From an uncultured bacterium (lineage in GTDB: Bacteria > Patescibacteriota > Minisyncoccia > Phycocordibacterales > PALSA-1337), in NCBI GenBank assembly GCA_903900935.1, contig CAIUOX010000033.1, positions 1-61,354 on the forward strand: a DNA stretch of 61,354 nucleotides, in the 5' to 3' direction. How positions within the stretch are numbered: position 1 is the first letter of the stretch; every line of letters starts with the position of its first letter. Under the pieces are notes generated by a model. It made no database searches. It had not been told where the DNA came from and was given only the letters and a program-made list of their open reading frames with translations. Positions 4,109-58,808 of the stretch are shown here, piece after piece. Position numbers and translations under genes: made by a program.

Positions 4109-4173
4109 TTACTGTCTTTGTAATAGGCCGTTTTCGGGGATAAAGACAGTAATTGGGCGCTATATGCGCTCCA
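4109..4173 (+). promoter_or_regulatory. structured 5' leader upstream of the DEAD-box helicase (two hairpins)
   Basis: Perfect 11-bp inverted repeat TTACTGTCTTT (4109-4119) / AAAGACAGTAA (4142-4152), followed by the hairpin TGGGCGC-TATAT-GCGCTCCA (about 4154-4173), just before the ATG at 4184. Confidence 0.4.
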
Positions 4174-4183
4174 AAATAATATA

Positions 4184-5611
4184 ATGGAACACAAACATCA
4201 TAAGCCAGTTTCTGGTGGCAAATATCTTGGGCATAAAAATACAGTATCGCGCAGTTCCGCTCATTCACGCCCATTCCCAGTAAGAAAATTTAATTCTATC
4301 TCGACACATGGAGCTTCTGCACCAAGTCGTATTTCAAAACCTTATGTTGGAGGATATCAAGGTAATCGAAGTACTGGATCTCATGGAGATCGTCCAGCTT
4401 CTAGTGGATACAAAGGTAATGCATCTCACACAAAGCAACCATATAAACGTAGTGGTTTTGGTGGTGGCAATCGTGGAGGTGGCTCACGCGGAGGTCGTGG
4501 AGGTTTTTCTCAGCGCATCGATATTTCAAAGTTTATTAAGAAGGCTGTTATCACTGAACAATCTGAAGTATTCGTGCCAGAGCATAAGTTCACTGATTTT
4601 TTGATTGATGAGCGCCTAAAAAAGAACATTCTTGGTCGTGGATATCTTGTACCTACACCAATTCAAGACAAAATTATTCCACATATTCTTCGTGGATCAG
4701 ATGTTGTGGGTATTGCAAATACAGGAACAGGTAAGACTGCAGCATTTCTTATACCACTCATCAATAAATTGCTTGCCAATCCTAAACAAAAAGTGATTAT
4801 CGTAGTTCCAACTCGCGAATTAGCTATACAGATTGAAACAGAATTCAAAGGTTTTGCACCACACCTTGGTATGTGGGCAGTTTGTTGTGTTGGTGGAGCA
4901 AGTATTGGACCTCAAATGTCTGCACTATCTCGCTCATTTAATGTCGTTATTGGAACACCTGGACGTTTGCGTGATCTAATTGAGCGCAATAAAATACGTT
5001 TGGCTGAATATGGAACTATAGTTCTAGATGAAGCTGATCGCATGCTTGATATGGGATTCATTGCTGATATACGATATATGGTTTCTCGCATGCCAAAAGA
5101 AAAGCATACTCTGTTTTTCTCAGCGACCATGTCAGATGAGATCAAGACATTGATTTCTGAATTCCTAAAAACCCCGGTATCTATTTCTGTAAAGACACAA
5201 GATACTTCTGATCGTATTGATCAGGATATTATCCGTGTGCCTGGTGGAAAGACAAAGAATGATGTGCTTTATGAGCTTCTCGCAAAACCAGAATTTGATA
5301 AGGTTATTATATTCGGTAAGACAAAGCACGGTGTTGAACGTTTGTCAGAGACACTACGTTCACGAGGTTTCGCTGCCGAATCCATTCATGGCAATAAAAG
5401 CCATGGTCAGCGCCAGAAGGCTTTGAAGCTTTTCAAGGATCACCATTCGAAGATTCTTGTAGCTACTGACGTTGCAGCACGTGGACTCGATATCTCAGGC
5501 GTGAGTCATGTTATAAATTATGATCTTCCTGCTACTTATGATGACTATGTTCACCGTATTGGTCGTACTGGTCGTGCAAATAAAACAGGAAAGGCTCTTA
5601 CATTTGTTTAA
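4184..5611 (+). CDS. DEAD-box ATP-dependent RNA helicase with an approximately 115-aa Arg/Gly/Ser-rich N-terminal extension
   Basis: Q-motif PTPIQ, motif I NTGTGKTAAF, motif II DEAD, motif III SAT, motif VI HRIGRTGR. RGG-like tract GFGGGNRGGGSRGGRGGF. Confidence 0.9.
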   Translation: MEHKHHKPVSGGKYLGHKNTVSRSSAHSRPFPVRKFNSISTHGASAPSRISKPYVGGYQGNRSTGSHGDRPASSGYKGNASHTKQPYKRSGFGGGNRGGGSRGGRGGFSQRIDISKFIKKAVITEQSEVFVPEHKFTDFLIDERLKKNILGRGYLVPTPIQDKIIPHILRGSDVVGIANTGTGKTAAFLIPLINKLLANPKQKVIIVVPTRELAIQIETEFKGFAPHLGMWAVCCVGGASIGPQMSALSRSFNVVIGTPGRLRDLIERNKIRLAEYGTIVLDEADRMLDMGFIADIRYMVSRMPKEKHTLFFSATMSDEIKTLISEFLKTPVSISVKTQDTSDRIDQDIIRVPGGKTKNDVLYELLAKPEFDKVIIFGKTKHGVERLSETLRSRGFAAESIHGNKSHGQRQKALKLFKDHHSKILVATDVAARGLDISGVSHVINYDLPATYDDYVHRIGRTGRANKTGKALTFV

Positions 5612-6323: not shown

Positions 6324-7040
6324 TTAACGAACAGCTTTCCATTCTTTGGCTAGTGATTTTTTGAATACAGCGACCCAGAATGTCTCAATAGTCCATATGC
6401 TCAATAATTTTGGCCAACCATATTGATGAGCACGTCTACCATTGTGGAAGATGACTAATTTTCCATCATAGAGCGTTCTGCCGATCTTTGCGAGCTTGTT
6501 GAACATAATGCCATCTTCGCGCGTTACGAGATTTGCAGGAAATCCGCCGACTTTTTCAAAGGCATCTTTGCGCATCATTTGGAATTTACCAGATGATTCG
6601 CCACTATGAAGTACATTATTTTTTATATAGTGGACAAAATTGAATATCTTGTACATGATGACGTCTCCCAATGTCTTTACTTGTGGAAAAATGTCCAATG
6701 CTCCAGTTAGAGCAACTACATCTGGGTTTTCAAAATCATGAAGAGCTTGAGTAAAGAATTTGTCAGGATTTTCTATGAAGCTATCACCATCCATAAATAC
6801 ATATATATCACCGTGAGCTGATTTTACTCCATTGTTTCGGTTTGCGGCAATAGTTGGATGTTTTTTTTCTGGGATGAGAACTATATCAGCATATTGTCTT
6901 GCCACATCGACTGTTTTGTCTGTACTTCTATCATCACAAATGATCACCTCATGTGATAATGTCATCTTTTCCTTGAAGCATTTGATACTTTTTTCAATAT
7001 ACTTTTCTTCATTATATGTTGGGATGATGATGGAAATCAT
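6324..7040 (-). CDS. family 2 glycosyltransferase
   Basis: IIIPTYNEEKYI, ICDDRSTDKT and FMDGDS motifs. Confidence 0.8.
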   Translation of the reverse strand: MISIIIPTYNEEKYIEKSIKCFKEKMTLSHEVIICDDRSTDKTVDVARQYADIVLIPEKKHPTIAANRNNGVKSAHGDIYVFMDGDSFIENPDKFFTQALHDFENPDVVALTGALDIFPQVKTLGDVIMYKIFNFVHYIKNNVLHSGESSGKFQMMRKDAFEKVGGFPANLVTREDGIMFNKLAKIGRTLYDGKLVIFHNGRRAHQYGWPKLLSIWTIETFWVAVFKKSLAKEWKAVR

Positions 7041-8842: not shown

Positions 8843-9301
8843 TCAGTGTGCGACGCACGGTGCATACCGTCGTTGGATGTAGTTGTCCGTTGAACGTCCT
8901 GGACGAACATGACGATGCTTTCGTATTTGGCGCTTGAGCCACTTTACGGCATTTCGTAGTAGTACCCACAGAGTCTCGATGAGAGACTCTGATGTTTCGT
9001 AGCCAGTATCTACGAGGAGTAAGATAAACTCACTGCGAGCTTTGCATTGTCGGAGTAATTCATCATGTTGTTTCCAAGAATCAAGAACCGCCAGCTTGAA
9101 CTTTTGTCCACCGGCCAGCTTGAGGCTAAAGGCACGATTGATTCCATTGAGACCGATAGGTCCTGTGGATATTCGCTGGTAATGCACTATCCTGAAACAT
9201 TTGCGCGGAGCGAAGATATGCCCACACTTCTTCAGAATTGTCTCGACAATGTCTGAAATCGTATTGGTAAACGATTTTTTCTTCATAAGTTTATAGAGCA
9301 C
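8843..9301 (-). mobile_element. degenerate IS5/IS4-superfamily DDE transposase remnant (152 aa, probably non-functional)
   Basis: GQKFKLAVLD resembles G.K.H.avD. LLLVDTGYETSESLIETL resembles the ADxGYDSEEN motif. LLRNAVKWLKRQIRKHR resembles YRxRNxVERxFxxLKxFR, with Lys where the catalytic Glu is expected. Far shorter than an intact transposase. Visibly higher GC than its neighbours. No clear terminal inverted repeats. Confidence 0.4.
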
Positions 9302-9471
9302 GTTCGTTCTGGAATCATTCCAGCTCGATTCAAAATATAGTCTAGCACCTTTTTTATAGAGTATCTATGATGCACCACTTGAAACATGGAACAAACTAGG
9401 TATAAGTAGGCTTTGTCCATTTGACCTTTTGATATGCTAAAATATAGCCACTAGCTTAATATTATTTTTAT

Positions 9472-10503
9472 ATGAAAAAAATACGCGTAGCAATCAATGG
9501 GTTCGGTCGCATCGGTCGCGCTTTCTTGAAAGTTGCTCGAGACCGTAGCGAGATAGAGATAGTCGCGGTGAATGATCTAGGTAGTCTCGAAAGTTTGGCA
9601 TATTTGCTCAAGTATGACACTGCATATGGTGTCAGTACATTTGATGTTTCAATCAATGAAAAAAATCATTCTCTTATTATTGATGGTGCAGAAGTGCAGT
9701 TTATCAGTGAAAAAGATCCAGCTAGGCTCCCATGGAAAGCTATGGATATTGATATTGTTGTTGAATCAACCGGTTTATTTACTTCAGGCGACAGGGCTCA
9801 AGCTCATATTGTTGCTGGTGCCAAGCGTGTTGTTGTCTCGGCCCCAACCAATGATGCAGTAGATGCTGTGGTAAAAAGTGAGATTATCCTCATGTCCATG
9901 AATGAAGATAAACTTGAAACCTGCAGGATTTCTTCAAATGCTTCATGCACAACAAATGCAGGTAGTCCGCTTATTGCTATTCTTGATGAAACACTAGGTA
10001 TTGAAAAAGCACTTCTAAATACTATTCATGCCTATACAGCCTCACAGGCTCTTGTTGATGGTCCATCAAAGAAAGATCTCCGTGAAGGTCGTGCTGCTGC
10101 ACAAAATATGGTTCCTTCATCAACTGGTGCAGCAATTGCCGTTACGAAGATTATTCCAAAGCTAGAAGGTAAGTTCGATGGTATTTCGATTCGTGTTCCT
10201 ATTATCACTGGTTCTATCGTAGATATTACATTCGTTTCAAAGAAAGAAACAACTGCCGAAGAAGTAAATAGTATTCTCAAGAAGGCTTCAATACAGGATC
10301 GTTGGAGAAATATTTTCACAGTCACAGAAGAACCACTCGTTTCCCATGACATTGTAGGCAATCGTCATGCTTCTATCGCTGATCTTGAAATGACACGCGT
10401 TGTTGGTGGTAATTTGGTCAAGGTTTTGGCATGGTATGACAATGAAATGGGGTATACGTATACTTTAGTTGAGCATGTGATCAAGGCGGGGAGGTTGGTG
10501 TAA
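9472..10503 (+). CDS. gap: type I glyceraldehyde-3-phosphate dehydrogenase
   Basis: INGFGRIGR, the catalytic SNASCTTN, and WYDNEMGY at the C-terminus. Confidence 0.95.
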   Translation: MKKIRVAINGFGRIGRAFLKVARDRSEIEIVAVNDLGSLESLAYLLKYDTAYGVSTFDVSINEKNHSLIIDGAEVQFISEKDPARLPWKAMDIDIVVESTGLFTSGDRAQAHIVAGAKRVVVSAPTNDAVDAVVKSEIILMSMNEDKLETCRISSNASCTTNAGSPLIAILDETLGIEKALLNTIHAYTASQALVDGPSKKDLREGRAAAQNMVPSSTGAAIAVTKIIPKLEGKFDGISIRVPIITGSIVDITFVSKKETTAEEVNSILKKASIQDRWRNIFTVTEEPLVSHDIVGNRHASIADLEMTRVVGGNLVKVLAWYDNEMGYTYTLVEHVIKAGRLV

Positions 10504-10711
10504 AAACATGAAAAAAACTATAAAAATAATGGAGTAACGACATTGGAAGTTATTTATAATCCAGGAGCTCCAGCCCCATGGGTCATAAATTCTCAAGGTA
10601 TTAGTGAGCATTATCCCTCAGTTGATCAAACGGTTAAGTCGTTTAAATATATAACAGAATAATATTGTATCAATATAAATCTTCATCAGTTTTTTATTTC
10701 ACTTTGGTACA

Positions 10712-11253: not shown

Positions 11254-11715
11254 ATGAAAACCCAAACCATCATTCTCGCCTCAGACCATGCTGGCTTTGC
11301 ACTCAAAGAAGCCGTGAAGTCATTCTTGCAAGAAAAAAAGTACACCGTGCTTGATGTCGGTGCGCATGAACTCATTCCTGGTGATGATTATCCAATCTTC
11401 ATGTCAGCAGCTGCTCTCAAAGTCGCCCAAGATTTGAAAGGTGAGACCAAGGCTATTATATTCGGCGCATCAGGACAAGGTGAAGCTATTGTTGCAAATC
11501 GTTTTCCTGGAGTGCGTGCTGTAGTTTGGTATGGTGGTGATCAGGAAGTGCTAAGAAAGACTCGTGAACACAATGATGCGAATATTTTAGCAATTGGTGC
11601 AGTATATGTTGAACAAGATGCTACTTGCGATGCTGTTGAATCATGGTTAACAACTCCATTTAGTGGAGATGAAAGGCATCAGAGGAGGATTGAACAGATT
11701 GATACTATTGAATAA
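11254..11715 (+). CDS. rpiB: ribose-5-phosphate isomerase B (RpiB/LacA/LacB family)
   Basis: IILASDHAGFALKE at the N-terminus and GQGEAIVANR; family-typical length. Confidence 0.85.
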   Translation: MKTQTIILASDHAGFALKEAVKSFLQEKKYTVLDVGAHELIPGDDYPIFMSAAALKVAQDLKGETKAIIFGASGQGEAIVANRFPGVRAVVWYGGDQEVLRKTREHNDANILAIGAVYVEQDATCDAVESWLTTPFSGDERHQRRIEQIDTIE

Positions 11716-34401: not shown

Positions 34402-35436
34402 ATGGCAACCGCTTCTATTTCATTCAAACCAAAACAGACAGTAAAGCGTCTTTTGTCGTCTTTGCCTGATCGTGCACGAGAGGTACTGATATATCGTTAC
34501 GGTCTCGGTTCTGATACAAAGCGCATGACTCTTGATTCTATTGGCAAGAAGTATGGTATCACTCGTGAGCGCGTCCGTCAGATTGAGAATTATGGCATAG
34601 CCAATGTTCGCAAGTCTGAAGAATACAAACAAGAAAAAGCAGCATTTGCAGAGATTGAGGCTCTCCTCCATTCTCTTGGTGGTATTGTTGTAGAAGATGA
34701 TTTTCTCGGCCATGTCTCAAAAGACAAGAGTCTCCAAAACCATGTTCATTTTATTTTGGTCGTTGGTGAGCCATTTCGCAAACTCAAAGAAGATGATGAT
34801 TTCCGACATCGTTGGCATGTCAATGAAGAGCTCGCAAAACAAGTCGAAAGTGCACTTCGTAGGTTGTATTCCAATCTTGACAATCAACAGCTTCTTCCAG
34901 AATCAGAGATGGTTGCAAAATTCCTACAGCACCTTGAAGATGTCTCAGAGCGCTACAAAAATCAGGAAGTTGTAAAACGCTGGTTGGCGATCTCAAAATC
35001 TATTGGTAAGAATGCTCTTGGTGATTGGGGAGTTGCAGATTCTTCGAATATCAAGACAAAAGGTATGCGTGACTATGCATTTCTAGTTATACGCAAGCAT
35101 GGATCACCAATACATTTTCGTGATGTCGCAAAACAGATAACTCAACTCTTCAATAAGAAGGCTCATGTAGCTACGACACATAATGAGCTCATCAAAGATC
35201 CTCGATTCGTACTAGTTGGTCGTGGTCTCTATGCTCTCGCAGAATGGGGTTATGCCCCAGGGGTTGTGCGCGATGTTATCCGTTCAGTCATCTCAAAGAA
35301 TGGTACTCTGAGCAAAGATGAGATTATAGACAAGGTCATGAAGGAACGATATGTCAAAGAAAATACCATCGTTGTAAACCTCCAAAATCCAAAATATTTT
35401 AAAAAGGACAAAGAAGGAAAGTATACAATAGCCTAA
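34402..35436 (+). CDS. sigma-70 region-4-like HTH plus C-terminal HARE-HTH domain protein
   Basis: The N-terminal LPDRAREVLIYRYGL....TLDSIGKKYGITRERVRQIE matches sigma70_r4. The C-terminal MRDYAFLVIRKHGSPIHFRDVAKQI...DPRFVLVGRGLYALAEWGY matches the HARE-HTH pattern. Confidence 0.7.
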   Translation: MATASISFKPKQTVKRLLSSLPDRAREVLIYRYGLGSDTKRMTLDSIGKKYGITRERVRQIENYGIANVRKSEEYKQEKAAFAEIEALLHSLGGIVVEDDFLGHVSKDKSLQNHVHFILVVGEPFRKLKEDDDFRHRWHVNEELAKQVESALRRLYSNLDNQQLLPESEMVAKFLQHLEDVSERYKNQEVVKRWLAISKSIGKNALGDWGVADSSNIKTKGMRDYAFLVIRKHGSPIHFRDVAKQITQLFNKKAHVATTHNELIKDPRFVLVGRGLYALAEWGYAPGVVRDVIRSVISKNGTLSKDEIIDKVMKERYVKENTIVVNLQNPKYFKKDKEGKYTIA

Positions 35437-51644: not shown

Positions 51645-51652
51645 AAAAATCA

Positions 51653-51680
51653 AAAAATGGACTCTATTGAGTCCTTTTTT
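51653..51680 (+). terminator. rho-independent terminator after rpsI
   Basis: AAAAAATGGACTC-TATT-GAGTCCTTTTTT. Confidence 0.8.
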
Positions 51681-51748
51681 GTGGTTTAGGCCTAATATAA
51701 AATAAATTATTGCATCAAATTTATTTTTCCGTTAGACTGTCTATACGT

Positions 51749-52348
51749 ATGAAAAAAATAACTGATGACAACAATATAATTCTTGAAGATATACCCGAAA
51801 ACAAGAAAGCTTCTGGCGATTCAGATACGCTTGATGATTCAGTTATTGTTGAAGAAAATATGGGTGATGTTATCAAGAAGCTCAAAGAAAAGTTGAAAAA
51901 ATCTGAAACCGAAAAACATGAATATCTCACTGGTTGGCAACGCGCCAAAGCTGACATGGTCAATGCTCGTAAACGTGACGAAGAAGAGCGTAAAGAATTT
52001 ATGAAGTTTTCCAATGCAAATCTCATTGAAGAGCTCATTCCTGTACTCAATAGTTTTGATATGGCTATGGGTAACAAAGAAGCTTGGGAAAAAGCTGATA
52101 AAAATTGGCGTATTGGTGTTGAATATATTTATTCTCAGCTTATGAAAGTTTTGAGTGAAAATGGTGTACAGGAACTCAATCCAATTGGTCAGCTATACGA
52201 TCACAATCATCATGAGGCTATATCTCATGAACTAGTTACTGAACAAAAGCAACATGATATGGTTGTTCAGGTTGTGCAAAAAGGTTATTCCTTGAATGGT
52301 AAAGTGCTGAAGGTTCCAAAGGTAAAGGTGGGGGAGTTTAAAAAATAA
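51749..52348 (+). CDS. grpE: nucleotide exchange factor GrpE
   Basis: YLTGWQRAKADMVNARKR...LIPVLNSFDMA...G..LN.KVL.V.KV pattern. Start taken at ATG 51749. Confidence 0.85.
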   Translation: MKKITDDNNIILEDIPENKKASGDSDTLDDSVIVEENMGDVIKKLKEKLKKSETEKHEYLTGWQRAKADMVNARKRDEEERKEFMKFSNANLIEELIPVLNSFDMAMGNKEAWEKADKNWRIGVEYIYSQLMKVLSENGVQELNPIGQLYDHNHHEAISHELVTEQKQHDMVVQVVQKGYSLNGKVLKVPKVKVGEFKK

Positions 52349-52351
52349 ACT

Positions 52352-54892
52352 ATGAAAGAAATTTGGCATCAGAAAATTGGTTCATTTGGTGAAGAACTTA
52401 ATAAAGTTGAAAAAGCAACTGGTAAAACTTTTGATTTGTCAGAAGAACAAAAAGAGCAAACTCTCTTAGAATTTTTGAAAACAGATCGAGCCCGACTCAA
52501 AGCTTTTTTATCTATATTAAGAAAAATTAACGACGCACCAAATAAGGAAGAAGGGGCAGTTGGAGAAGATTCGATTCCTGAGATTGAAGGTGATTTTTCT
52601 CAAGAGCTCAAGACTTTGCATATTCTTGATGGTGTTGATTCATTTGTTGATGATTACAAAGAAGGTAAGAACTCAACCCTAGAACCTCGCCAAGTAGCTT
52701 CATTAGTTAAAATTGGCACATTCCTCCGTTCAGGCAAACGTCGTGGGTATCTCGAACTTCCAACAGGTCTCGGAAAAACTGTTATTTTTTCAGAGCTTAT
52801 TGAAGCTCTGAAAGATGTTCCTGATATCAAAATCCTAGTTGTTGGAAGTGGAAATATAAACAATATCCAAAATGTTCAGAAAATCGAAAAATTTGCCGGT
52901 GAAGAAGTGGGTAAATATTATGCTGGTGAAAAGGATACAAATTCAAAGATCACTGTATGTAACTACAATGGACTTCGAAACGCAATCAAACGAGATGATT
53001 TTAAGACAGGTGATTTTGACATTGTCTTATTCGATGAAGTGCATGATGGACTCGGAGAACTAACACAGGAATTGATAGAAAATACATTCATAAATGAAAC
53101 TCTTATTGGATTTTCTGCTACAGCAACCTATGAACTTCGATCTGGTAAGACTGCAACAGACATGTTACCTGTAGAAATAGATAAAATGGGAGTTGTAGAA
53201 GCGGTAAAGGGAAATCTACTTTCAGCCTTTAAGATAGAAGTGATTAAGATTCCAACAACTATCAATTCGGTTCGTGTGAATGGTGGTGATTATCTCCCCA
53301 ACGAACTTGAAAGAGAAATAAACACAGAAGCACGAAACGGCCTTGTTGTAGATAGTTACATGAATTTCTATAGGAATGGAGATGGCAGTGATAAGTCCAT
53401 CTCATTTTGCGTAAGCAGACAGCATACCAAGGATCTTGCAATTGCATTTGAAGCAAATGGAATTACAACAGGTATTCTAACTGGGGAACTGAGTATTGAC
53501 GAAAGAGAAGCCGTTCTACAAAAGTGGAAAACTGGAGAAATTGAAATGCTTTGTGGTTCAAAACTCGCATGGCAGGCACTAGATGAAACTGAGGTAACTG
53601 TTGGACTTAACGTTACCCCAAGTGTTTCCGAAAAAGATGTTATCCAAAGAGGTGGTCGTTTACTACGTAGATCACAATTTCAAAACAATAAAAGGGCAAT
53701 CATTGTCGAATTCCTTGACGAGTGGCGCGAAACAAAGAATTATCCGATCTTTTATTCTGAGATACTCGATGTTTCTGAGGCTCAACCTGATGTTTGGAAA
53801 GATGAAGAGTTGTCAAAAGATAAGTCGCCTAGAACTCAGATTGAGACGAGAATAAATAAACCAGAAAATAAAATCTCATCAACTTTAGGAATACAAATTA
53901 AACCTACCCGTATTTCAGATGGACGCGAAATAATGCAGATAACCAATCAAAATCGTAAATTTAGAAATGAAGTCTATTATGACTATGCTCCTAAGGGGTA
54001 TATGAGCTCAAATATTATTGCTGTTGAACTTGGAACATCAACTAAGGCTGTAGAAGATGCAATTGCTCAGATGAAGATTACTCGTGGATCTATTCGTAGA
54101 AAAGACCAAGGAATATATCTAAGCGCATTGGGTATAAAAAGAATTTTCTATGGTGGTATGGCACTTGATTCCATATACAAATACTTCATTGGTGGTACGC
54201 GAAGCGAAAAAATAGCACGGGGAGATATTGAAGAGGCAAATGACTTCACCAAATTGGAGCGCAGAGCGGTAGAACTAGACAATGAAGTACCTCCAAGCGA
54301 GACTGTTGATCTTGATTGGCGTGATTATTCATTGGAACCAAGTTTCACTATGGAAGGAGATAGTCTAACTGATGAAGAAGAAGGAACTGCAATCGGCGAT
54401 ACATCTGAACTTCGTCCACCAACAGAGCCTATCGAGGGTAAATTTAATGACATAGTTGGGTACAGATACTACAAACAAGGTAGCGAGGATCATAAGTATC
54501 GTGCGATTTTATTAAGACGAAATATTGAGAAGCAATTAAAAGTCACTGAGCGCTATGGTATACGTCCGAATGAACAAACCCTTCAAGTAGCATCTGAAAT
54601 ATCAGAACTCATAGCGGATGATACACTTAAAATTGCCACTGATAACAAAGACAGGTTGGCGTATCTCAAAGCTATTGTTAAGGATACCGAACTTTTATCG
54701 GACCGAGACAGGATAATACTAGATATGCTTTATATTAATAATCCTAATGAAATAAATACACCAAAGTCTCTTGAGAAACATTTTAAAGTATCGAGAACTG
54801 CTATCGATGCAAGAGTACGGAAAATATTCAGGATTTTAAGATGGGAGCTCCACCAATATGAGTCAGGTATAAACACACTTAAGAAATATTGA
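52352..54892 (+). CDS. SF2 (ResIII/DEAH-type) helicase with a long C-terminal extension ending in a sigma-70 region-4-like HTH
   Basis: LEPRQ (Q-like), motif I ELPTGLGKT, motif II FDEVHD, motif III FSATAT, motif VI QRGGRLLRR. A second HTH-like segment is IIAVELGTSTKAVEDAI. C-terminal LSDRDRIILDMLY....SLEKHFKVSRTAIDARVRKIFRILR. Confidence 0.75.
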   Translation: MKEIWHQKIGSFGEELNKVEKATGKTFDLSEEQKEQTLLEFLKTDRARLKAFLSILRKINDAPNKEEGAVGEDSIPEIEGDFSQELKTLHILDGVDSFVDDYKEGKNSTLEPRQVASLVKIGTFLRSGKRRGYLELPTGLGKTVIFSELIEALKDVPDIKILVVGSGNINNIQNVQKIEKFAGEEVGKYYAGEKDTNSKITVCNYNGLRNAIKRDDFKTGDFDIVLFDEVHDGLGELTQELIENTFINETLIGFSATATYELRSGKTATDMLPVEIDKMGVVEAVKGNLLSAFKIEVIKIPTTINSVRVNGGDYLPNELEREINTEARNGLVVDSYMNFYRNGDGSDKSISFCVSRQHTKDLAIAFEANGITTGILTGELSIDEREAVLQKWKTGEIEMLCGSKLAWQALDETEVTVGLNVTPSVSEKDVIQRGGRLLRRSQFQNNKRAIIVEFLDEWRETKNYPIFYSEILDVSEAQPDVWKDEELSKDKSPRTQIETRINKPENKISSTLGIQIKPTRISDGREIMQITNQNRKFRNEVYYDYAPKGYMSSNIIAVELGTSTKAVEDAIAQMKITRGSIRRKDQGIYLSALGIKRIFYGGMALDSIYKYFIGGTRSEKIARGDIEEANDFTKLERRAVELDNEVPPSETVDLDWRDYSLEPSFTMEGDSLTDEEEGTAIGDTSELRPPTEPIEGKFNDIVGYRYYKQGSEDHKYRAILLRRNIEKQLKVTERYGIRPNEQTLQVASEISELIADDTLKIATDNKDRLAYLKAIVKDTELLSDRDRIILDMLYINNPNEINTPKSLEKHFKVSRTAIDARVRKIFRILRWELHQYESGINTLKKY

Positions 54893-54924
54893 TTTTTCTT
54901 ATTGCATTTCGTATACTAAAGCCA

Positions 54925-55281
54925 ATGCTTACTGCATATACCCCAAATAATCAGTCTCTTCAGGTTCATCAAGGTGGCCGATTTATTGAGAAAATCTTCA
55001 CTGACCAAGCTGGCCAGCAATTCAAGCTTGTCTTCTTTGTTGCCCTCATCAATGGTGAAGTGAAGGGTACTCTTGTGTCAGCACAACCGATGCAGCGGAG
55101 GTCAGACCTCGGCATGCGATCTGGCAGAGGTCAGACCTCGGCGGAAGTGCTCTATCTTCCTATTTCAATTCCAAAGAATGACGTAGTCACCGAATACATT
55201 CCTGCATATGTTCCAGTTATTTCTCCTTTCAACGAACTCTTCTTCTTTACGAGCCAACCTACTAGAGCGCCATCTCTTTAA
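54925..55281 (+). CDS. hypothetical protein (118 aa) containing two copies of the GAGGTCAGACCTCGGC palindromic element
   Basis: ATG at 54925 lies 7 nt after TATACT (54912-54917). ORF track 54889..55281 uses an upstream TTG. No recognisable family. Confidence 0.4.
   Translation: MLTAYTPNNQSLQVHQGGRFIEKIFTDQAGQQFKLVFFVALINGEVKGTLVSAQPMQRRSDLGMRSGRGQTSAEVLYLPISIPKNDVVTEYIPAYVPVISPFNELFFFTSQPTRAPSL
55098..55142. repeat. two direct copies (29-nt period) of the 16-mer GAGGTCAGACCTCGGC, whose core GAGGTC-A-GACCTC is palindromic
   Basis: Copies at 55098-55113 and 55127-55142. The same 14-mer occurs in reverse complement at 58788-58801. Confidence 0.85.
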
Positions 55282-55392: not shown

Positions 55393-57285
55393 ATGTCAAA
55401 AATAATCGGAATCGACCTCGGAACAACATTCTCAGCCGTCGCAGTGATGGAAGCCGGAGTACCACGCGTACTTGAGAATGCTGAGGGTCAGCGCACAACT
55501 CCATCAATCATTGCTCAATCAAAGACTGGTGAACGTCTTGTTGGTTTGCTAGCAAAACGCCAAGCAGTCACAAACCCAAAGAATACAATATTCCAGATCA
55601 AGAGATTTATGGGACATACTTTTGATGAGCCTTCAGTACAAAAAGATATTAAAAACCTATCTTTTGATGTTCGTAAATCTTCAAATGGTGGCATCGAAGT
55701 AAAAATGGGTGATTCATGGCTTAGACCAGAAGAGGTTTCAGCTATGCTTCTTAGTAAACTCAAAACTGATGCAGAGGCTCGCCTCGGTGAAAAGGTTACT
55801 GAAGCAGTTATTACAGTTCCTGCATACTTCAATGATTCACAGCGCCAAGCAACCAAAGATGCCGGTAAGATAGCTGGTCTCGATGTGAAGAGAATTATCA
55901 ACGAACCTACAGCCGCAGCTCTTGCATATGGTTTTAGCAAGAAGAAAGACGAGAAGATTGCAGTCTTCGACTTTGGAGGTGGTACATTTGATATCTCAGT
56001 GCTTGAAGTTGGCGACGACGTGATCGAAGTAAAATCTACTGATGGTGACTCTCACCTCGGTGGACGTGACATTGATGCAAAGATCGTCAATTGGCTTGCA
56101 GATACATTCAAGAAAGAAAATGGTATTGACCTAAAAACAGACGCTCTTGCATTACAACGCTTGGACGAAGCGGCTGAAAAGGCAAAGATTGAGCTATCAA
56201 CTGCAGTTCAAACAGAGATAAATATCCCATTCGTAACCTCAGGTGCAGATGGACCAAAACATCTTCTAGTAACAATGACTCGTGCGAAGCTTGAAGAAAT
56301 GACAAGAGAGTTCGTAGATCGCGCTATGGTCATCACCAAGCGTGCTATTGAAGCTTCACCATTCAAGATAGGTGATATCAATGAAATCGTCATGGTGGGC
56401 GGACAAACGCGTATGCCAGCCCTCCAAGACGCTGTCAAGAAGTTCTTCGGAAAGGATCTTCATATGGGTGTGAATCCTGACGAGGTGGTTGCGGTGGGCG
56501 CGGCTATTCAAGGAGGAATCCTTGGTGGCGATGTGAAAGATGTTCTTCTTTTGGATGTTATTCCATTGTCTCTTGGAATCGAAACTATGGGTGGTGTAGC
56601 AACGAAGCTCATTGAAAAAAACACGACAGTTCCTACCCAAAAATCTCAAGTGTTCTCAACTGCCGCTGACAATCAGACATCAGTGGAGATTCATATCACT
56701 CAAGGTGAACGACCAATGGCAGGCGACAATAAGTCACTTGGAAAATTTATTCTTGATGGTATTCCACCAGCACCTCGTGGCATGCCACAAGTTGAAGTTT
56801 CATTTGATGTTGATGCAAATGGTATTTTGAGTGTGACTGCAAAGGACAAAGCTACTGGAAAAGCCAACTCTATCAAGATTACTGCTTCTTCAGGCCTATC
56901 AAAGGATGAGGTTGAAAAGATGAAGCAAGAAGCAGCTGCACATGAAGCTGAAGATAAGAAGAAACATGAAGCTGTTGAAGCAAAGAATATTTCTGAACAG
57001 CTCATCTATACATCAGAAAAGGCATTGAAAGATGCAGGTGACAAAGTTCCTGCAGAACTTCGAAAGGCTATTGAAGATAAGATAGCGGATCTCAAAACTG
57101 CGAAGGATAGTACTAATCCAGATATTGAAGTTATTAAAAAGGCTTCAGAGGCTCTTTCAACAGAGATACAGAAGATTGGTTCCTCTTACGCCAAGGCTTC
57201 GGAGGACAAGCAGGCAGGTGGTCAAACTGAAAACAAAGGACCAGAGGGTGATGTTAAAGACGCTGAATTCAAAGAAAAGAAATAG
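55393..57285 (+). CDS. dnaK: molecular chaperone DnaK (Hsp70)
   Basis: [25 protein letters not shown] and the EEVD-less bacterial C-terminal lid. Confidence 0.97.
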
Positions 57286-57352
57286 GATACGCTTGCCCTA
57301 CGAAGCTCGTGCATTACGAGCGAAGTCGGGGGGTTAATGGGAAGAAGTAATT

Positions 57353-57418
57353 AAAAAAGTCCCCTCGTAGTTCTCCTGATTCGCCAACTGGCTGAATCGG
57401 GGGAATAAACGAGGGGAC
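57353..57418 (-). terminator. long compound hairpin, minus-strand terminator for ORF 57427..57768
   Basis: Outer stem GTCCCCTCG (57359-57367) / CGAGGGGAC (57410-57418) enclosing an inner imperfect stem (GATTCGCC/GGCTGAATC). AAAAAA at 57353-57358 gives a U-run on the minus strand. Confidence 0.55.
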
Positions 57419-57426
57419 ACAGGGAA

Positions 57427-57768
57427 TTAGATACGTTTGAAGAGTTCAAGTAGATTTGCACGACTTTCGCCAGCAAGAAACTTTCCAGTAAAAACATTTA
57501 CTCTTTCGCGACCCGCTGTATCCTTTGAGAATACGCCGTCCAAAGCACGAAGATCTTGGGGTTCGGGTGATTTGCTGTTTGTAAGAGCAAAAACTAGTGC
57601 GAGTGGGTTTATTTCTTTGATCTCTCTGGCAATATCACGAGAATCAAAAACGCCATCAATATGTGAAGTGAAGATCAACTGTGGGCTGTTCGGAACAATA
57701 CGTCGAATTACTTCTTCCATAGACCCAATAGTGCTCATCTGAATTACCATGATCGAATCTGCTTTCAT
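57427..57768 (-). CDS. hypothetical protein (113 aa), receiver-like fold without an obvious phospho-acceptor Asp
   Basis: The alternating beta/alpha pattern (IMVIQMS ... QLIFTSHIDG ... LVFALTNS ... GVFSKD) resembles REC domains, but the acidic pocket residues are not evident. Confidence 0.3.
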   Translation of the reverse strand: MKADSIMVIQMSTIGSMEEVIRRIVPNSPQLIFTSHIDGVFDSRDIAREIKEINPLALVFALTNSKSPEPQDLRALDGVFSKDTAGRERVNVFTGKFLAGESRANLLELFKRI

Positions 57769-57847
57769 AATGTTTCGTTTGGTGGATTGTCATTGATCAA
57801 ACTCCTATTTGTTAAAAACCTTACCATGTGTTAAATTAAACGTCAAT

Positions 57848-58781: not shown

Positions 58782-58808
58782 AAAGGTCGAGGTCTGACCT
58801 CGACCTTT
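58782..58808 (+). terminator. perfect 13-bp-arm palindrome AAAGGTCGAGGTC-T-GACCTCGACCTTT after dnaJ; a member of the GAGGTCWGACCTCG repeat family
   Basis: Hairpin 8 nt after the dnaJ stop. There is only a short T-run (TTT), so terminator function is tentative. Confidence 0.5.

Follow-up and report, generated by a model that had tools for sequence, protein, structure and literature searches.

An SF2 helicase with a tail derived from sigma-70 region 4 occupies a variable slot between grpE and dnaK in a Patescibacteriota genome

Introduction

Between grpE and dnaK of an uncultured bacterium (Patescibacteriota; Minisyncoccia; Phycocordibacterales; PALSA-1337) lies an open reading frame (ORF), P0001, that joins a superfamily 2 (SF2) helicase core to a winged-helix-like helix-turn-helix domain (wHTH), an acidic segment and a tail derived from sigma-70 region 4 (sigma4). 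The window analysed here is the whole of contig CAIUOX010000033.1 from assembly GCA_903900935.1, 61,354 nucleotides read on the forward strand. The closest described systems each resemble a part of the protein. The motor has counterparts in archaeal XPB/Rad25 (2FWR, 6P66, 5TNU) and in the helicase module of 7CLG, with which it shares the two-lobed core, the Walker A motif, the DEVH box, the SAT motif and QRxGRxxR. Among annotated proteins the outgroup closest to the P0001 family, at 26-27% identity, is formed by XPB-type proteins with XPB_DRD and ERCC3_RAD25_C domains, but P0001 has neither a damage-recognition domain nor a Bax1-type partner. We take 7CLG to be the type IV restriction enzyme SauUSI. 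SauUSI carries a PLD nuclease and an SRA-like target-recognition domain, and P0001 differs from it in having neither. The SF2 “DNA helicases” of phages in phrog_16 are similar in the core and give the best profile match; they differ in being 22–27% identical, in the core only, and in lacking the extension of wHTH, acidic segment and sigma4.

The last ~70 residues of the protein are homologous to regions 4.1-4.2 of the sigma-70 family (SigA/RpoD, RpoS, RpoH, WhiG). In contrast to these factors, sigma4 is here attached to a helicase, regions 2 and 3 are lacking, and the base-reading residues are lost in P0001 and several orthologues. For the domain in the middle, the MerR-type wHTH of the RacA DNA-binding domain (5I41/5I44) offers a compatible topology of helix-turn-helix plus beta-hairpin wing with an insignificant sequence match. 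RapA/HepA, HelD and Mfd may be compared as functional analogues only, each combining an NTPase motor with a module for RNA polymerase or promoter DNA. RapA is a Swi2/Snf2 protein, HelD belongs to SF1, Mfd uses its RID domain, and none of the three is known to use sigma4.

In the literature searched we found no helicase ending in sigma4 without the rest of a sigma factor. P0001 combines parts that are each familiar (SF2 motor, winged helix, sigma region 4) in a new way, and the combination is extremely rare in sequence space. We are highly confident about the identity of the gene, its distribution and its insertion at this site.

Results

Gene structure and assembly support

The ORF listing and its translation place the start codon of P0001, an ATG, at 52352. 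The motifs that the initial annotation had reported for this ORF (ELPTGLGKT, FDEVHD, FSATAT and QRGGRLLRR) are all present, and the C-terminal extension of ~380 amino acids (aa) that it described behind the helicase core is real and kept in homologues. The parts of the gene are as follows; models were made with AlphaFold2 (AF2), and their confidence is given as predicted local distance difference test (pLDDT).

52352..54892, forward strand: whole gene, helicase-wHTH-sigma4 protein P0001, 846 aa
52352..52675, forward strand: N-terminal region of ~108 aa; helices in the model, 50% mean pairwise identity in the helicase family, no Pfam match
52679..53761, forward strand: SF2 helicase core, residues ~110-470; ResIII lobe (Walker A PTGLGKT, DEVH box, SAT) and Helicase_C lobe (QRGGRLLRR)
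53990..54277, forward strand: winged-helix-like domain, residues ~547-642; includes NIIAVELGTSTKAVEDAI and LSALGIKRIFY; AF2 pLDDT 80-86
54293..54571, forward strand: acidic segment, residues ~648-740; DL-W-DY-L-PSFT-EG-S-DEE-G...SEL...G..D..GY-Y...T-RYG; predicted disordered
54650..54862, forward strand: sigma-70 region 4-derived domain, residues ~767-837; LSDRDRIILDMLY...TPKSLEKHFKVSRTAIDARVRKIFRILR; assigned by family profile, AF2 and Foldseek

The stop codon of grpE (TAA) occupies 52346-52348 and the helicase ATG begins at the fourth base after it, leaving 3 bases in between. This junction is spanned with zero mismatches by Logan contigs from lake-water runs (X1, 52322-52518; X2, 52218-52391; X3, 52311-52461), and the junction between the helicase gene and the small ORF behind it by a Logan contig of X2 (54878-55160), again with zero mismatches. 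These runs may share a study with the window's own sample and are not fully independent of it. Because contigs from public runs span both junctions without mismatch, the arrangement of grpE, helicase and small ORF is not an assembly chimera. Judged from its sequence, the P0001 copy is intact, being open over 846 codons with all ATPase motifs in place.

The helicase core

Pfam assigns ResIII to residues 110-258 (2.8e-20; 73.3 bits, cut-off 22.5) and Helicase_C to residues 346-440 (3.8e-10; 40.4 bits, cut-off 23.5). PTGLGKT, DEVHD, SATAT and QRGGRLLRR are invariant across the helicase-sigma4 family, in agreement with membership of the SF2 ResIII/DEAH helicases, and the mean pairwise identity of the core within the family is 69%. 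The P0001 copy departs from 9 of the 158 core positions that are otherwise invariant in the family, as many as the member P0006 and fewer than P0010.

When the family core profile was compared with the PDB, the nearest entry was 7clg_A, annotated “putative helicase” (9.5e-17), followed by archaeal XPB/Rad25 at ~1e-11. Our assumption that 7CLG is SauUSI agrees with a PADLOC match to mREase_IV. The best profile match of P0001 residues 55-616 was phrog_16 “DNA helicase” (2.8e-46). Two more specific assignments were rejected. As an XPB equivalog (NCBIfam NF045503, cut-off 610 bits) P0001 reaches 45.8 bits, chiefly over the second lobe; XPB_DRD (PF18458) was seen in the outgroup proteins P0013-P0015 only and not in the P0001 family. 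As a type IV restriction enzyme it fails because the mREase_IV match (7.3e-13) aligns query residues 138-469 to profile positions 251-572 of 953, which is the helicase part only. No nuclease domain was found in P0001 with Pfam, NCBIfam or PADLOC, and an H-x-K near the N-terminus is not kept in orthologues. PADLOC-DB 2.0 and NCBIfam returned generic partial helicase matches only (mREase_IV, PbeA, BrxH).

These matches bear on two alternative explanations. In the first, P0001 would be a conflict or defence gene, a stand-alone anti-phage or anti-plasmid ATPase, and in the boldest form of this idea the fast-evolving sigma4 tail would serve as a decoy that detects phage proteins of the AsiA or ORF67 type, the appropriators of host sigma4. 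The nearest structure, 7clg_A, and the best PADLOC match, mREase_IV, point in this direction, but a nuclease or effector domain was not found, and what PADLOC recognises are generic helicase lobes. In the second, P0001 would be a site-specific helicase of a replication, recombination or mobile module, with the wHTH and sigma4 recognising a lineage-specific site and the gene itself being a remnant or the cargo of an element. Here the closeness to phrog_16, a family of phage replication modules, is the first argument, together with the 329 phage records that match the core. However, none of these records exceeds the 22-27% range, the core alone being matched, and the extension is absent from them as well as from viral contigs.

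The tail is derived from sigma-70 region 4

We aligned the extensions of the 8 full-length family members (alignment A2), built a profile from them and folded the extension of P0001 separately with AF2. The model of the full-length protein was poor (pLDDT 50) and was not used. With the tail profile of A2 (8 sequences) 77 PDB chains were matched, and all 60 of those listed are regions 4.1-4.2 of sigma factors; among the matches listed SigA ranks first (5.2e-9), then RpoD, RpoS, RpoH and WhiG. Five of the six members in a second alignment (A1) match Pfam Sigma70_r4 (PF04545), the best at 1.4e-12, and member P0004 is 45% identical to region 4 of Bacillus subtilis SigA over 73 residues, including an identical run of 12 residues (GKVFGVTRERIR). 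P0001 itself gave no PF04545 match, either over its full length or when C-terminal pieces were searched with E up to 10, and was missed by tblastn with region 4 of B. subtilis SigA. In the AF2 model its tail forms a helical bundle with pLDDT 80-90 at residues ~767-837. Foldseek returned almost only sigma4 structures for this model, with TM 0.74-0.76 and rmsd 1.7-2.7 Å to 1ku3, 4g6d and 8jzt; the accompanying E-values are weak, which is due to the several domains of the query.

The profile and sequence comparisons identify the tail of the family as a true sigma-70 region 4, derived from a primary-type sigma factor. The initial annotation had read the end of P0001 in this way, and assignment by hidden Markov models and structure upholds it at the level of the family and of the fold, although the sequence of P0001 alone reaches no Pfam threshold. 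A complete sigma factor is ruled out: none of the family members scanned has a Sigma70_r2 or Sigma70_r3 match, which leaves them without region 2 or 3, and the PDB profile matches reach at most ~40 residues before region 4.

To describe single residues we use the numbering of Escherichia coli sigma70, mapped onto the family through the SigA fragment. The scaffold positions L551, R554, T572, L595, L598 and R599 are kept. The residues that read the -35 element, R584/E585/R588/Q589, have become R/T/D/A in P0001, G/S/G/G in the Nomurabacteria copy and G/T/G/I in the Taylorbacteria copy, and are largely kept in P0004, P0005 and P0006 only. With a mean pairwise identity of 25% versus 69% for the core, sigma4 is the fastest-evolving folded part of the protein. 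Since the scaffold persists while the base-reading surface has decayed in P0001 and several orthologues, a conserved specificity of the -35 type is unlikely; the copy has diverged, its -35 readers are lost, and a conserved -35 hexamer is most likely not what the tail recognises.

The divergence of sigma4 can be read in other ways. Rapid evolution of this domain is in line with a defence gene, as is the fact that one of its PDB matches, 4g6d, is a complex with a phage appropriator. A recognition helix that varies between orthologues is also what would be expected of a site-specific helicase with shifting DNA specificity. A third alternative is that P0001 is a decaying passenger, a recently acquired copy that is losing its function with the sigma4 tail going first. 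P0001 is indeed the only aligned member without a Pfam Sigma70_r4 match, it has altered residues at 3 of the 6 sigma4 positions that are invariant in the other members, and its insertion removed the canonical promoter of the small ORF downstream (see below). Yet the reading frame and the ATPase motifs are undamaged throughout, the number of altered core positions is no higher than in P0006 and lower than in P0010, and the sigma4 fold is still confidently predicted by AF2. We regard decay as very improbable.

A second sigma4 domain occurs elsewhere in the window. The ORF at 34402..35436 (forward strand, 344 aa) has an N-terminal Sigma70_r4 match (6.6e-15) with a canonical recognition helix, ITRERVRQIE, and a C-terminal match to HARE-HTH, the fold of the delta subunit of RNA polymerase, which at 2.9e-5 falls slightly short of the Pfam cut-off. 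Region 2 and region 3 are both lacking, so this ORF is not a sigma factor.

The winged-helix-like domain and the acidic segment

The middle domain is preceded by an invariant motif, N-x-N-R-K/R-F-R-N-E, at residues 532-540. In the AF2 model of the extension it has a winged-helix-like topology consisting of a helix-turn-helix, a beta hairpin and a further helix, and its mean pairwise identity is 50%. RacA (MerR-type) was matched weakly, with E = 0.09 over 33 residues, which is below significance, and appears in the Foldseek list for the extension model at rank 46 with probability 0.51. None of the 8 members has a Pfam family in this domain, and nothing significant was found in the PDB. The HTH-like segment noted earlier (IIAVELGTSTKAVEDAI) thus lies inside a confidently modelled wHTH-like fold, while its support in sequence amounts to the RacA match; this first HTH of the extension has no Pfam family.

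The acidic segment behind it has a pLDDT below 50, yet its mean pairwise identity of 51% equals that of the folded wHTH. It contains many invariant aromatic and acidic columns and is probably a partner-binding motif.

The helicase gene fills a hypervariable slot

We compared the locus with four relative grpE loci: L017 (GrpE 85% identical), L018 (84%), L100 (78%) and L101 (69%). The features of the window concerned are the following.

51749..52348, forward strand: grpE; 199 aa from the ATG used by relatives, frame opens at TTG 51710; Pfam GrpE 1.2e-38
52350..54924, no strand: window-specific segment, consisting of the helicase gene alone; absent from L017 and L018 by blastn
54925..55281, forward strand: conserved small ORF directly upstream of dnaK; 118 aa here and 109 aa in relatives; right edge of the slot, not part of the helicase unit
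55393..57285, forward strand: dnaK; 85-87% DNA identity to the HSP70-called genes of L017 and L018

The window and all four relatives share the gene order rpsM-rpsK-rpsD-rpoA-rplQ-rplM-rpsI-(small ORF)-grpE, then dnaK after an interval, then dnaJ where the contig reaches that far; in the window dnaJ lies downstream of dnaK. The slot between grpE and dnaK lacks the helicase in 4 of 4 relatives, and its cargo is different in each: a 158-aa ORF, a YtxH-like gene with several small ORFs, a fatty-acid desaturase gene, and a PF1765-like gene with small ORFs. In blastn alignments against L017 and L018 homology breaks off where grpE ends (52338-52349) and sets in again at 54925, which is the ATG of the small ORF. 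This ORF has 73-74% aa identity to L017 6407-6736 and L018 11347-11676 and no family match. The closest GrpE relatives are 83-86% identical, 199 aa long and located on contigs of up to 372 kb, whereas the best relative of the helicase reaches only 57%.

The picture of the locus given by the initial annotation has to be corrected in two respects. It implied that the helicase gene abuts dnaK, but the small ORF lies between the two; and it took direct adjacency of grpE and dnaK as the canonical state, whereas the relatives examined all carry variable genes there. Because the four relatives have the same flanking genes in the same order but no helicase and different cargo, the helicase is an accessory gene in a hypervariable slot and its place beside the chaperone genes is incidental.

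In both L017 (~6360-6406) and L018 (~11300-11346) a canonical promoter, TTTACA-N17-TATAAT, precedes the ATG of the small ORF by ~10 nt. At the corresponding place in the window (54889-54924) it is replaced by the 3' end of the helicase gene and a weaker TTGATT-N17-TATACT. The insertion may have changed transcription of the small ORF and perhaps of dnaK.

Two more variable slots exist in this otherwise syntenic region. In the rpsI-grpE spacer (51645-51748) all four relatives have an ORF of 111-140 aa and the window has none. The dnaK-dnaJ spacer (57286-57808) holds a 113-aa antisense ORF in the window, a gene of the 23S_rRNA_IVP family in L018 and nothing in L100; in L017 an unrelated 109-aa reverse ORF lies just after dnaK and the contig ends before dnaJ.

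A precise insertion or replacement between two genes, as seen here, would also suit the site-specific helicase introduced above. However, neither at this locus nor at the homologue loci did we find an integrase, a primase, a replication initiator, a terminal repeat or a target duplication, and direct or inverted repeats flanking the insert gave chance-sized matches only.

Relation to the chaperone operon

The position of the gene had suggested a lineage-specific regulator or remodeller of the heat-shock operon, co-transcribed with grpE and controlling the grpE-dnaK-dnaJ promoters through its HTH and sigma4 modules in place of HrcA/CIRCE. Some observations are in favour of this. Only 3 bases separate the grpE stop from the helicase ATG and no terminator lies between them, which makes co-transcription of the two genes likely by position; no RNA run was found to contain the gene, and the general scan for promoters and terminators gave counts no higher than in shuffled sequences. 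A CIRCE operator, reported as missing, is indeed absent from the window when up to 3 mismatches are allowed. Furthermore, the palindrome GAGGTC-N-GACCTC occurs in three exact copies in the 61-kb window (55098-55110, 55127-55139 and 58789-58801), all of them in the dnaK-dnaJ locus, where it could be an operator; with up to 2 mismatches there are 6 matches versus 0.77 expected.

The palindrome was nevertheless rejected as family-level evidence for an operator of the HTH tail. It is absent from the dnaK loci of the relatives and from the homologue loci searched, and two of the copies in the window (GAGGTCAGACCTC at 55098 and 55127) sit within an extra coding insert of ~9 residues in the small ORF, which the relatives lack together with the palindrome. 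The relatives keep their chaperone genes while having no helicase in the slot, the other 7 family members are nowhere near grpE, dnaK or dnaJ, and the sigma4 recognition helix of P0001 is without base-reading residues. Rfam gave chance-level matches only on 51-59 kb. The synteny comparison proposed together with the regulator idea was made, and because the gene is absent from the relatives' site and variably located in the family, this explanation fails; we give it next to no probability. The absence of CIRCE stands, but replacement of HrcA/CIRCE-type control is not borne out, as the helicase is not kept with the chaperone operon.

Distribution of the family

A phmmer search with the extension against 1.84 billion representative proteins returned 3 clusters, and a word-based search of 5.8 billion clusters returned 8 full-length members of 844-904 aa that are 47-57% identical to P0001. 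Beyond these, identity falls to 33% and 29% (P0011 and P0012, whose C-terminal modules are different ones), and XPB-type proteins follow at a still lower level. In the GTDB species set the gene was found only in a single genome each of Candidatus Nomurabacteria and Candidatus Taylorbacteria, and a scan of JGI metagenomes added one more Nomurabacteria-type locus. No relative is encoded on viral contigs. By sequence similarity this is a very small, Parcubacteria-restricted family. Its full-length members number about 8, all of Parcubacteria type, and their genes are set in six or more distinct neighbourhoods. The neighbourhoods of members other than P0001 are:

P0002, Nomurabacteria orthologue: divergent from infC, upstream of smpB-ftsH
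P0003: beside a VTT-domain gene and smpB
P0004: after a VTT-domain gene and followed by a second helicase
P0005: after a peptidase S51 gene
P0006: beside HEPN, methylase and GmrSD/HNH genes (restriction-modification genes)
P0008, contig L014: inside a ribosomal-protein operon, between rplE and rpsH
P0010: after a NUDIX gene

The ribosomal-protein operon of the Parcubacteria contig L014 (1-11400) is broken at three points: a PemK toxin gene separates rplW from rplB, a 473-aa ORF separates rplB from rpsS, and the helicase-sigma4 gene separates rplE from rpsH. It is accompanied there by two small reverse ORFs; rpsN (S14) normally lies at this place, and no S14 gene was called there. On L008 a plain second SF2 helicase (9082-10626, 514 aa) comes after the family member. 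A homologue of this second helicase, 58.8% identical, is found in the window at ~4126-5610 (forward strand), ~47 kb from the helicase-sigma4 gene. The tail of the outgroup protein P0012 (L015 8001-10100; 29% core identity) consists of four repeats of ~60 aa ending like YGKTFSEVxxGK, and the same motor may here carry another kind of tail for targeting DNA.

Since the two closest relatives are without the gene at the site and no homologue above 57% identity was found in the protein collection, either the gene was gained in the window lineage or it disappeared from the sister lineages. When the Nomurabacteria and Taylorbacteria contigs are compared, the gene is 64.9% identical and its place partly conserved; values for FtsH, SmpB, RecG and L20 are 68%, 63%, 60% and 60%. 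From these identities the pattern looks like vertical descent under strong constraint. When the window is compared with L008, the second helicase, which is the only shared comparator gene, is 58.8% identical versus 54.9% for the helicase-sigma4 gene.

For a defence role the distribution is ambivalent. Sporadic occurrence, residence in a variable slot and absence from sister genomes are what such a gene would show, and P0006 stands next to HEPN, methylase and GmrSD/HNH genes. On the other hand no partner gene is conserved across the 8 neighbourhoods, the remaining neighbourhoods are mostly housekeeping, and between Nomurabacteria and Taylorbacteria the gene behaves like a core gene, being partly conserved in place and similar in identity to FtsH, SmpB and RecG. 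Taken with the evidence from the core and from sigma4, we consider a defence function rather unlikely. The site-specific helicase gains from its nearest outgroups, P0011 and P0012, ending in other C-terminal HTH-like repeats; given the points against it named above, we judge it improbable. The alternative already raised for this ORF, a domesticated phage or defence helicase, is neither established nor dismissed by these results: no phage or viral contig shows the architecture, and the PADLOC matches concern the core only.

Discussion

Of the explanations weighed, we lean slightly towards P0001 being an accessory double-stranded DNA translocase that its tail tethers to DNA or to RNA polymerase. 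The ATPase core would translocate on duplex DNA and the C-terminal modules would act as a tether deciding where the motor works. The tail would dock the motor either non-specifically on DNA or on the beta-flap of RNA polymerase. The tip of the beta-flap is the natural partner of sigma4. A motor tethered to transcription or promoter complexes or to DNA is favoured because the -35 reading is lost and the beta-flap tip is the other known partner of sigma4. From there the enzyme could remodel or displace transcription or promoter complexes, much as RapA, HelD or Mfd would. By analogy with these motors such a mechanism is conceivable, and we propose it tentatively, as a doubtful rather than a probable outcome.

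A bolder and unlikely version would have the sigma4 tail plug an XPB/SauUSI-like translocase onto the beta-flap or the -35 position. P0001 would be an ATP-driven remodeller of promoter or post-termination complexes competing with sigma, the acidic segment would be a nucleic-acid mimic or a partner-binding motif, and the gene would amount to a mobile accessory transcription factor.

Several observations weigh against a tether to RNA polymerase or DNA as described. Contact with the polymerase is purely inferred. The hydrophobic positions of sigma4 that bind the flap are at the same time positions of the fold core, and their conservation does not discriminate. An identity of 25% in sigma4 fits a variable partner, such as lineage-specific DNA sites or the opponent in an arms race, better than a conserved flap. 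The retention of the -35 readers in P0004, P0005 and P0006 suggests that DNA reading may be ancestral and still in use among some members. Defence genes, too, are distributed sporadically and reside in variable slots. Finally, the sigma4 of P0001 itself stays below every Pfam threshold, and the model of the full-length protein is poor, with a pLDDT of 50.

Independently of the function of P0001, the locus shows that conserved operons of these bacteria contain hypervariable slots which are filled by unrelated genes in each lineage. If the bolder version above is right, convergence would have given some ultra-small Parcubacteria a bacterial equivalent of TFIIH-XPB or RapA. More generally, if the tail docks on RNA polymerase or on promoters, it would represent a new coupling of ATP hydrolysis to bacterial transcription, in much-reduced genomes.

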